Positions 39,001 through 42,000 of a stretch of 64,000 bases of DNA are shown one piece after another. The stretch lies in assembly GCF_030013205.1 (NCBI RefSeq), contig NZ_CP122648.1, one strand, 5' to 3'. This stretch comes from Escherichia coli. GTDB taxonomy: Bacteria > Pseudomonadota > Gammaproteobacteria > Enterobacterales > Enterobacteriaceae. The position numbers are program-made. Each line of letters begins with the position of its first letter. Position 1 is the first letter of the stretch.

Positions 39001-42000
39001 CGTGCGCAGCCCTTCCGTAATACCGAAATCAACCTCCGTCAGCTCCAGCGCACGGCGAACGACAGCAACCAGCTGTGGTTTAACGCCCTCCAGATTCTTT
39101 TCGCTGCGACGACTAAATCTGAATTTACCCGACATATTCACCTCAACAATGGAAAGATTTTTGTGACGTTCCCGCGCGCGCGTATCACCAGCACGCAGAA
39201 CAGCAGATTAAAAAACACTTCAGGCCAGCCCGTTGCTAACGGGCGACCACACAGATAGCTGAGGGGCGCAAAGGCATACAGCAGCATCAGCAGCCAGGCC
39301 AGCCATGACATCAGCGGTTTATGTCTGGAATCACGGCGACGATAAAAAAAGAACGTCAGCACGATAACCGTGCATAACGCCACATTCAGCAATCCGGGAA
39401 GGTTACTTAACATTGCCGCCTCCTCCGCCCCTCAGGCGGGAGAACAGGCCGGACACCAGTGATGCGATATCCTGCTGGTGGATGAATGACAGAATCTTCA
39501 CTGACACCACCGATACCAGCACCGCACACAGCGCATCTGCCGATGTACCGTCATACCCTGTTTTTGATGTAATCCAGGCTGACAGCACACGTGCTCCCAG
39601 CACGCCGACGATAAACGACACCAGAAAATGCGCCGCCACACGCCAGGCGGAAATCTTCTGCGGCACAGTTGCCACAAACAAAGCCCCCGCGAACGCACCA
39701 AACACAATCCCGAAATCCGTTCCGGTGAACAGCCCGAATACCGTCGCCCCTCCGAGCGCAGCCGCCGTGCCGGAACCGGATAAGGGTTCAGACATACTTT
39801 TTTCTCCTGTAAATAAAAAAGGGCCACCAGCGGCCCGTAAAAAAACAACACCCCGTCAAAGGCACCCGCAGATACCTTTTGTGTGGTGTATTCAGATTTG
39901 ACATACGCTGAGCAGGGCGAAGAAATGAAAAAGGCCCGCAGTAGCGAGCCATGAAGAAACTGAATAAAAAAAACCGCCTGGTACGGCGGTTAAGATGAAT
40001 TTCCAGGTTTTGCTTAATACGTGATTAATCTCAACGTTTTTTATAGATGTTAACAACATCGGAATGATGCATCACCGGCCCTGTCAGGAAATACAAAATC
40101 TCCACCGATAATGCACCATTACGCTGTTGTAAAAAGACAGCACTGGACTGTAACCGATATCACGTATTACAGAACAGGATGTGGATAAAGATTCAGGAAA
40201 ACATCCCACATATAATATGTCAGTGCCCAAAACAACTTGGTATCGTCTACTGCTGGAGCGGGTAGCGGGAATCGAACCCGCATCATCAGCTTGGAAGGCT
40301 GAGGTAATAGCCATTATACGATACCCGCATACTATGCGGTCTTCAGTAATCACACGAATTACCGTGAAAGCCAGCACTGGTCTTTCCGACGGTAGTAACA
40401 CCCCTGTGAACACCAAAATAACCGTCTTCCAGACCGACGAGAATACTAACGACATTTTTTCAGATATCAAAAATATATTTTGTTTTTAGTTTTTAATATA
40501 TGTATGCATCTGTATCAGAAATATACAATTTATATCATTACTAAATTAAAAACATTTCTCTGACGTCTGATTAAAACGTTCCTGTTCCAGTTCCGCGCCA
40601 ATCACACATGGTCATTGCGTTTTACCAGTCCATCGCCACTATCAGGCTGACCAGGGGACGCCCCACCCGAACTGCTGAGAATGCCAGGCACACAAAGAAT
40701 AATGCCCGCCAAAGCGTTCCTGCATACAATGACTGCAAAATTCAGTTATTCTTGAGCGGAGCCAGAACTCATCTCACTGAATGCAGCCATCCTGTAACCT
40801 TCCGGGGTGACCCCAAAATAACGCCTGAATACACTGATAAAATAAGATGTATTATTATAGCCACACTGCACAGCGATTCTGTTGATGGCACAGCTATATT
40901 GATGCAACAGCATTGCTGCCATTCTCATTCTCTCCGTAAGCAACAACTCACTGAAACATGTGCCTTCTTCTTTCAGTCTTTTTTTAACAAACTTTCACTC
41001 ATACATAACCGTGATGACACATCTCGCAGAGTCCAGTTTGCTGCAATGTCTGTATGAAACAACGCACCAAGCCTGCCGCTGATAGTACTGATACACGCGG
41101 TCATAAACGACGAAAACATTTTATCTGATGAAAAAAACGCCAGACACGAAAAGGAAAGCATTTCCGCTAAATTGTCCGTATGAATCTTTTCCTCATAAAG
41201 ATAATCAATCAGGATGCCCATCAATTCTGGCCTGGGAAAACTCATGCAAAGATATCGTGGCATTTTCCGGACTAAAACAACATCCTGTTTTACCCCACTA
41301 CGCAACAGGTAACGGCTAATTGTCGATTCACTGAGACTTATACGCCGAAAACATTCAGAAAAGGGCAATAACGGTCCAGCCCCTCCCCTGACAAGAAGTG
41401 CACTACCACTTTCCAGAGAGAGTACTTTTCCTTCGAAGAGCACAACAAACGGGGAATGAACAAAAATAACAGAACAGGCCTCATTCATATCAATATCCCT
41501 GACATTACTGGTCGCAAGATAAGTATATATCACTTTACAAAAATGCAAGCCGTGAGCCCCGAATTCACGACCACCAGCGTGTTTACTGTACTGCACCAGG
41601 TTTACAGGTACAAAAAACCGCTCGACGGCGGGTTTAAGCTGTGTGGCGAAGTAACCACTCTTAACAGATTAAGATAAAATTTGCGGACCGCGGTAATTTT
41701 TTTTGCTAAATTAAAGCCATATAAAAAATAAGATCCATAAGAAATTATTAGTATACTAAGGTTTAACATGGCTACTATTGCGCAATCAAAGAAACAAAAA
41801 AAACTTAAAATTGGTTTTTACACCAGCAGTTCTGGGACTATCCGCAGCCATTCAGTTGCTAAGCAAGCAATTGAAAATCTGTATAATACTTGCGTAACCG
41901 TTACGAATAATCATTTTGATACCATCTATAGAAATAAAAAGTTAAAAATAGCTTTTATAAATAAAGATACAAAAGCTAAATATTTCTTCGGCTACATGTC

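Follow-up and report, generated by a model that had tools for sequence, protein, structure and literature searches.

In Escherichia coli the glycine tRNA gene glyT lies in the thrU-tyrU-glyT-thrT-tufB operon. Lambdoid and Stx phages also carry tRNA genes, in the interval between the late antiterminator gene Q and the lysis genes, where they lie on the late-gene strand and read minor codons ending in A. The ileZ-argN-argO genes are the Q-to-lysis tRNA genes of 933W-type phages, and the arrays found elsewhere have the content Asn-Thr-Gly (JLK-2012) or Thr-Gly (phi467, vB_EcoS-683R6 and SerU-LTIIb); literature searches found no paper dedicated to lambdoid Thr-Gly tRNA arrays. The tRNA-Gly(UCC) gene that we describe here is identical to glyT at 73 of 75 bases, and the partner tRNA-Thr that accompanies such genes in phages is thrU-like, but the unit differs from the host operon in its U6:A67 pair, in its phage flanks, in having neither tyrU nor thrT, and in its promoter and leader, P(thrU), the host promoter with a GC-rich discriminator, being absent from the phage unit. 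Its slot, its strand and the A-ending minor codon that it reads are those of the lambdoid and Stx arrays, from which it differs in having a single tRNA, a large insert after Q and a defective prophage around it.

A further group of described systems comprises the toxin- or nuclease-resistant phage tRNAs, with which this gene shares the trait of being a phage-borne isoacceptor that differs from that of the host. Examples are the T5 tRNAs that act against the Retron and PARIS defence systems, and anticodon-loop variants (eLife 2023, PMC10264068). Resistant phage tRNAs escape at the part recognised by the toxin, mostly the anticodon loop, whereas the tRNA described here has the anticodon arm and the first five acceptor pairs of the host.

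The window, that is the whole 64,000-nucleotide stretch of E. coli DNA that was analysed, is near-identical to the chromosomes of pig-associated E. coli (K_EC180, O139:H1 W13-16 and many ETEC strains), and the RefSeq records of those strains annotate a tRNA-Gly at this place. A lambdoid prophage with integrase, Q, holins and endolysin lies between prfC and yjjG, at approximately 28.9-53.3 kb of the window; it is defective, its terminase, head and tail genes being mostly truncated or absent. An earlier note on this DNA had described a complete 75-nt tRNA-Gly(UCC) gene between an AraC pseudogene and the lysis genes on the strand of the late operon, and annotation together with mapping confirmed this position, inside the prophage and between Q and the holin. 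The features of this part of the prophage, in the direction of late transcription, are as follows.

43180-43545, minus strand: late antiterminator gene Q, PF06530 (Pfam 175 bits and annotation), 2.85 kb upstream of the tRNA
40973-41596 and 40746-40928, minus strand: AraC gene split by a frameshift (annotation); the W13-16 version is intact, with 283 aa
40546-40603, minus strand: 3' remnant, about 58 bases, left over from a DNA methyltransferase gene, with a homologous stop codon in the alignment with L074, L131 and L132
40254-40328, minus strand: tRNA-Gly(UCC) gene, 75 nt, CCA encoded, glyT-like with U6:A67 (ARAGORN, Rfam, comparison with glyT, RefSeq annotation)
38758-39795, minus strand: lysis cassette that follows the tRNA (mapped onto the window from the RefSeq annotation of identical DNA), made up of the next three genes
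39403-39795, minus strand: holin gene with its start codon at 39795 (RefSeq annotation)
39138-39413, minus strand: holin gene (RefSeq annotation)
38758-39135, minus strand: endolysin gene, M15 metallopeptidase (RefSeq annotation)

The 2.85-kb insert between Q and the tRNA unit contains the frameshifted AraC gene and, on the opposite strand, a small ORF and a DUF6731 gene. In related prophages an intact DNA methyltransferase gene precedes the tRNA unit; here the AraC/DUF6731 insert has taken the place of all of that gene except the 3' remnant.

Of the four tRNAs that ARAGORN called in the window, one is a minus-strand tRNA-Gly (anticodon tcc) that spans exactly 40254-40328. The Rfam tRNA model RF00005 scored 65.6 bits over its full length (model positions 1-71), the gathering score being 29 and the E value for the whole window 5e-12, and the predictors gave no pseudo-tRNA verdict. 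The gene is complete, as the earlier note had it. The minimum free energy fold of the RNA has a 7-bp acceptor stem, the anticodon arm and the T arm, and the cloverleaf places UCC in a 7-nt anticodon loop and the conserved T-loop sequence in the T arm. The window gene is a genuine tRNA-Gly2 elongator gene.

The reference for comparison was another strain's glyT, that of L006, a K-12-type E. coli genome (positions 1501-1575, in the thrU-tyrU-glyT-thrT-tuf operon); its sequence matches the two-mismatch copy that was the best match in 5,154 records. The window tRNA differs from it at two places, by a C to T change at linear position 6 and a G to A change at linear position 66. With a variable loop of 4 nt, the latter is canonical position 67, so that the change is from C6:G67 to U6:A67, which is the compensatory acceptor-stem pair that the earlier note had suggested. 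The alternative raised there, a sequence identical to a host copy and flanked by host DNA, does not describe this gene, since the 6:67 pair differs from glyT and the flanks are those of a phage. No difference from glyT is found in the D arm, the T arm or any part of the anticodon arm, nor at U73, in the encoded CCA or in acceptor pairs 1-5. The window tRNA has G1:C72, C2:G71, G3:C70, U73, C35 and C36 (GCGGGUA...CUUCCAA...UACCCGC-U-CCA), which we take, from the literature on E. coli tRNA identity, to be the identity elements for GlyRS. Since all of these are kept, the tRNA should take glycine and read GGA and GGG. It is probably functional; its conserved candidate promoter, its encoded CCA and the compensated substitutions in 120 phage copies are indirect signs that it may be expressed, processed and charged.

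The gene and its alleles are widely distributed. A search of 5,426 complete E. coli genomes with the 75-mer gave 6,570 matches, spread over 5,420 of them, and more than a thousand of the matches are copies other than glyT. In at least 268 of these roughly 5,420 genomes the best copy shares 99% or more of its bases with the allele of the window (identical or one base off). Annotated copies of exactly this U6:A67 allele are known from SerU-LTIIb, a phage (KU052038), and from the prophages of two strains, 401651 and 120899; close tRNA-Gly variants are present in JLK-2012 and vB_EcoS-683R6, and the copy in Stx phage phi467 has no difference from glyT. The same allele thus recurs in the same slot of independent phage and prophage genomes, always between Q or the methylase gene and the holin gene, and a tRNA-Gly with U6:A67 is also found in the T4-like phage PP01. 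The observation itself is already known, the gene being annotated in RefSeq and the allele being in published phage and prophage records, and as tRNA genes in the lambdoid Q-to-lysis region are textbook cargo its value as a discovery is small.

A scan of IMG/VR allowed any base at positions 6 and 66. Among the 120 contigs in the matches listed, the 6:67 pair was C:G in 68, U:A in 47, U:G in 4 and C:A in 1; the tRNA-Gly stood in the context of the host operon in none of these 120 listed contigs. The variation at 6:67 is that of a compensated stem change with a U:G wobble intermediate, and it speaks for selection on the cloverleaf rather than for a new specificity. In other prophages the same slot has decayed (L132, L137 and L138), or holds a tRNA-Gly that is still called and has no encoded CCA (L131 and L133), or has the anticodon switched to UCU (L135 and copy a of SerU-LTIIb). 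Given the decayed and CCA-less copies, selection on the slot appears to be non-uniform.

In most phages a tRNA-Thr(UGU) is located three bases upstream of the tRNA-Gly and is either equal to host thrU or at most two bases off, and this match points to the host operon as the source of the captured genes. The phage pair is thus host thrU...glyT minus tyrU and its spacer, and the conserved unit from which the window gene descends consists of a promoter, a 5' hairpin, a thrU-like tRNA-Thr, a glyT-like tRNA-Gly, a long trailer hairpin and terminators. We looked for a second tRNA directly upstream of the tRNA-Gly in the window, and ARAGORN and Rfam, the latter also with E up to 10, gave no call at 40329-40450. 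The features of this upstream part of the unit are as follows.

About 40471-40545: AT-rich block with conserved sequence, upstream of the candidate promoter
40443-40470, minus strand: sigma-70 promoter candidate for the tRNA unit, with -35 TTGATA at 40470-40465, a 16-nt spacer and -10 TAGTAT at 40448-40443 (consensus scan)
40379-40435, minus strand: leader hairpin 1, apical sequence UGUUCACAGGGGUGUUAC (RNAalifold, pair counts, R1 alignment)
40334-40377, minus strand: leader hairpin 2, decayed remnant of a thrU-like tRNA-Thr (pair counts, R1 alignment, pairwise alignment)

The -10 hexamer TAGTAT is identical in six of eight diverged copies and is TAATAT or TATTAT in the two most diverged ones, and the -35 core TTGAT is present in five copies and approximate in the rest (TGGATA, TTGAAA), with a spacer that varies. 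We infer from the sequence that TTGATA-16-TAGTAT is used as a promoter. The leader that would follow is about 105-114 nt long and folds into two hairpins, the first of which starts at approximately +1 of the predicted transcript and has at its apex UGUUCACAGGGGUGUUAC, conserved among closely related copies. In eight copies, 87.8% of the leader pair cells held standard pairs, compared to 27-45% when the partners were slid, and 12 pairs had changes on both sides (8 for helices 1 and 2 together); none of 500 shuffles reached the leader values for percentage paired, double-change counts or covariation score.

In the loci searched, a covariance model of the leader, R1, had strong matches to 21 copies, that of the window counted among them, and aligned weakly (18-38 bits) to the hairpin plus tRNA-Thr of ordinary Thr-Gly arrays (L004, L005, L007 and L008). 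Hairpin 1 matches the hairpin that precedes tRNA-Thr in all of those arrays, and promoter-like hexamers are located just upstream of each. Hairpin 2 retains in its 3' half the T-loop, the T-stem and the 3' strand of the acceptor stem, while its CCA is gone. In pairwise alignment with thrU-like tRNA-Thr, the L131 copy of this hairpin had z = 4.2 (0 of 500 shuffles) and the window copy z = 2.3 (9 of 500 shuffles); the decayed tRNA-Thr is visible only through the covariance model and through alignment to sister arrays. The window tRNA-Gly is thus the survivor of a Thr-Gly unit whose tRNA-Thr has decayed to a stem that is still base-paired. In IMG/VR the pattern TGTTCACAGGGGNGTT occurred at 47 loci, of which only those also matched by R1 are real; the remaining metagenome matches are probably due to chance.

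Other identities were considered for the leader. The put RNA of HK022 is a promoter-proximal antiterminator with two stem-loops (PMC9378689), and the window leader is likewise promoter-proximal and has two stem-loops, one unpaired base apart, upstream of terminators. It differs from put in its length (about 105 nt versus about 70 nt) and in its hairpin 2, which is the decayed tRNA-Thr and at whose position sister prophages have a real tRNA. R1 gave no match to the HK022 genome (L134) at E up to 1, a result that concerns the leader sequence, for which R1 is specific, structural analogues being outside its reach. The antiterminators to which the tRNA unit is linked moreover belong to more than one family, PF06530 Q in the window and DUF1133 in L135 and L007. 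Given these different families, the homology with tRNA-Thr and the lack of a match in HK022, the leader is neither pR'/qut nor evidently put. For the leader loop as a candidate sRNA seed, its complement CACCCCTGTGAAC had three matches in the window at up to two mismatches, one of them the locus itself, versus 1.1 expected, and 11 of 100 shuffles also reached three, so that this candidate was rejected.

Downstream of the tRNA the unit has the following features.

40050-40133, minus strand: conserved trailer hairpin, about 35 bp long (from 7 diverged copies by RNAalifold, with both sides changed in 6 pairs)
39991-39972, 39950-39933 and 39836-39821, minus strand: three terminator-like hairpins with T runs, after the tRNA trailer and ahead of the holin start at 39795 (terminator scan)

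The trailer hairpin is also present in the minimum free energy fold of the whole unit (z = -4.8), and the terminator scan of the region found 10 candidates versus 4.3 expected. What is mildly new at this locus is confined to the decayed tRNA-Thr hairpin and to the covarying structures of leader and trailer. Several of the points reported here go beyond the earlier note, namely that the allele is widespread and already annotated, that the tRNA has a candidate promoter of its own and a structured leader, and that a tRNA-Thr partner has decayed beside it.

Two roles that phage tRNAs of this region can have were named in the earlier note, compensation for codon usage and the countering of host nucleases that target tRNA, and our results favour the first of these. 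Prophage genes use GGA at 16.0 per 1000 codons versus 7.2 in the flanking host genes (odds ratio 2.25, Fisher p = 2e-5), GGA and GGG together make up 46% of the glycine codons of the prophage versus 24% in the flanking host genes, and in the holin gene adjoining the tRNA they account for 10 of 19 glycine codons. The enrichment of GGA in the prophage over the flanking host genes (2.2 times) is lower than that of ACA (3.2 times) and ATA (5.2 times), so that GGA is part of a general bias to A-ending codons and is not a specific signal. The cognate codons of the tRNA are over-used within this general bias, and the tRNA most likely adds decoding capacity for the rare GGA and GGG codons that phage genes over-use. 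The second role is unsupported, as the anticodon stem-loop is that of glyT and acceptor pairs 1-5 and U73 have not changed.

We consider it reasonably likely, taking the explanation as a whole, that this is a functional tRNA-Gly2 gene of host origin in a self-contained unit that supplies GGA and GGG decoding. Such a unit would be close to a classical moron, with its own sigma-70 promoter, a structured 5' leader, the tRNA, a structured trailer and terminators, situated just upstream of the lysis genes. In a lysogen the tRNA would be transcribed from the unit's own promoter, and upon induction Q-modified polymerase would read through from upstream. RNase P would cut the precursor, and host GlyRS would charge the tRNA, allowing GGA and GGG to be read. 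The supply of a low-abundance host tRNA encoded by a single gene would thereby be raised, and the A/T-richer phage and moron genes use its codons approximately twice as often. The U6:A67 pair would be a structurally neutral substitution, compensated by way of a U:G intermediate and leaving specificity unchanged. Since the prophage is defective and makes no particles, phage production cannot at present gain from the tRNA at this locus; any benefit may now go to the host or to the expression of morons, or there may be none.

This state of the prophage also suits another explanation, in which the tRNA is a neutral relic, still intact within a decaying prophage, unselected in this genome and preserved by the recency of the insertion. 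The frameshift in the adjacent AraC gene, the decay of the neighbouring tRNA-Thr and the dead tRNAs in the homologous slots of three other prophages all agree with it, and the approximately 20 copies in pig strains are all 100% identical, so they are uninformative on selection. Across prophage lineages, however, the cloverleaf has been kept by compensated or G:U-compatible changes only, while the flanks of the tRNA-Gly fall to about 80-85% identity, and this indicates purifying selection on the tRNA-Gly family, if not on the window copy. We regard a relic as unlikely, though as the most serious of the competing explanations. A function in counter-defence is improbable by comparison. Here the phage tRNA-Gly, along with tRNA-Thr in intact arrays, would replace or outnumber host tRNAs inactivated by toxins, and U6:A67 would make a poorer substrate for a toxin acting on the acceptor stem. 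Phage tRNAs rescue translation from the tRNA-targeting systems Retron and PARIS according to work cited in PMC11559606 and PMC11555353. The toxSAS toxin FaRel2 selects tRNA-Gly as well as tRNA-Thr, which is also the pair in the phage arrays, by acceptor pairs 1, 2, 4 and 5, and in the model contacts the first five pairs only (PMC11559606). The sole difference of the window tRNA from glyT is in the acceptor stem, and PP01 shares it. All of the pairs that FaRel2 reads or contacts are nevertheless the same in the window tRNA as in glyT, and the anticodon stem-loop is the host's, so that anticodon nucleases are not evaded. The host C6:G67 is moreover the commoner state in the IMG/VR contigs listed (68 of 120) and is the state of phi467, and the pairing of Thr with Gly is explained by descent from the host thrU-tyrU-glyT operon.

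More doubtful still is the narrower proposal that the Thr-Gly unit counters acceptor-stem toxins that co-target tRNA-Gly along with tRNA-Thr (toxSAS-like or GNAT-like), with U6:A67 lowering recognition while the GlyRS identity stays intact. We attach the least probability to the idea that the 75 identical bases serve as an anchor for recombination, that is as a crossover point for swaps of lambdoid modules on either side. Homology between prophages does break at or beside the tRNA: L074 combines a leader of the window type with a trailer of the L007 type, and SerU-LTIIb carries the unit twice, copy b having a tRNA-Thr upstream and a trailer of the window type. Breaks of this kind are expected of any conserved segment, however, and an anchor would leave both the compensatory maintenance of the cloverleaf and the dedicated promoter unexplained.

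The locus provides a clean, small example of the capture of a host tRNA operon (thrU...glyT) by phages, as well as of the evolution of a stem pair by compensated change via U:G. It also documents the turnover of one slot across prophages, with intact, anticodon-switched and decayed copies. Should U6:A67 or the conserved hairpins of the leader and trailer prove to be functional in themselves, the unit would be a tractable model for the way in which temperate phages tune or protect the tRNA pool of the host.

A 17-nt direct repeat flanks the tRNA, at 40133-40149 and 40367-40383, with a significance that is borderline by a rough estimate; its downstream copy belongs to a conserved motif of the trailer, CAGTGCTG.

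The prophage tRNA-Gly(UCC) is flanked on both sides by conserved RNA structure, and its surroundings comprise the following features, given in window coordinates.

40334-40435, minus: two-hairpin 5' leader of the tRNA-Gly, supported by covariation
40050-40133, minus: conserved trailer hairpin of approximately 35 bp, supported by covariation
39821-39991, minus: three tandem hairpins resembling intrinsic terminators, beyond the tRNA trailer and before the start codon of the holin gene
40746-41596, minus: split AraC-family gene (ORFs of 207 aa and 60 aa)
41768-43156, plus: gene for a DUF6731 protein of 313 aa, plus an ORF of 122 aa; both lie between Q and the tRNA
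38111-38686, plus: histidine phosphatase gene, Ais/PmrG-like (annotation: LPS core heptose(II)-phosphate phosphatase)
29418-31317, plus: SLATT protein (PF18160) and UG17-class reverse transcriptase (PADLOC RT_UG17, 527 bits)
23403-23784 and 56395-56477: REP/BIME-type repeat arrays, matching Rfam naRNA4
56625-56947: host leuQPV tRNA-Leu(CAG) triplet

Covariation in the leader is strong, with compensatory changes at 12 pairs among eight copies, and no Rfam family matching this leader was found. Hairpin 1 is also present in ordinary Thr-Gly arrays, the phage units of tRNA-Thr followed by tRNA-Gly, while hairpin 2 is a decayed tRNA-Thr whose base pairing has been kept. On the other side of the tRNA, the trailer hairpin has six covarying pairs among seven copies and recurs in every type of prophage that was compared; it could represent a site for RNase III or an RNA of the 3'-ETS type. 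The terminator-like hairpins that follow would keep transcription that starts at the tRNA promoter from reaching the lysis genes, except when it is carried out by Q-modified polymerase.

In other prophages the tRNA slot shows anticodon switching, with two tRNAs that carry a UCU anticodon and are called as tRNA-Arg. The one in phage SerU-LTIIb (L002 1122-1197) is built on a thrU-like tRNA, and the one in E. coli ZYB62 (L135 2774-2849) on a glyT-like scaffold having an identical D arm and altered stems. Three further loci (L132, L137 and L138) have the same type of promoter-leader module as the window followed by decayed tRNA remnants, on which ARAGORN no longer makes a call. The L138 copy is plasmid-borne and adjoins an Ais-like phosphatase gene similar to that in the window.

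Between Q and the tRNA, the AraC-family gene is broken in two by a 1-nt frameshift, which may be a homopolymer sequencing error; strain W13-16, whose chromosome is near-identical to the window, has an intact gene of 283 aa. The DUF6731 gene and the ORF of 122 aa are both oriented antisense to the late operon, and neither product had a match in PADLOC.

The Ais/PmrG-like phosphatase gene is a moron located between the endolysin and DUF1441 genes on the opposite strand. At the end of the prophage nearer to prfC, the SLATT and UG17 reverse transcriptase genes constitute a DRT-type anti-phage defence pair. The REP/BIME arrays and the leuQPV triplet are ordinary host features; the naRNA4-matching repeats near prfC number four tandem copies.
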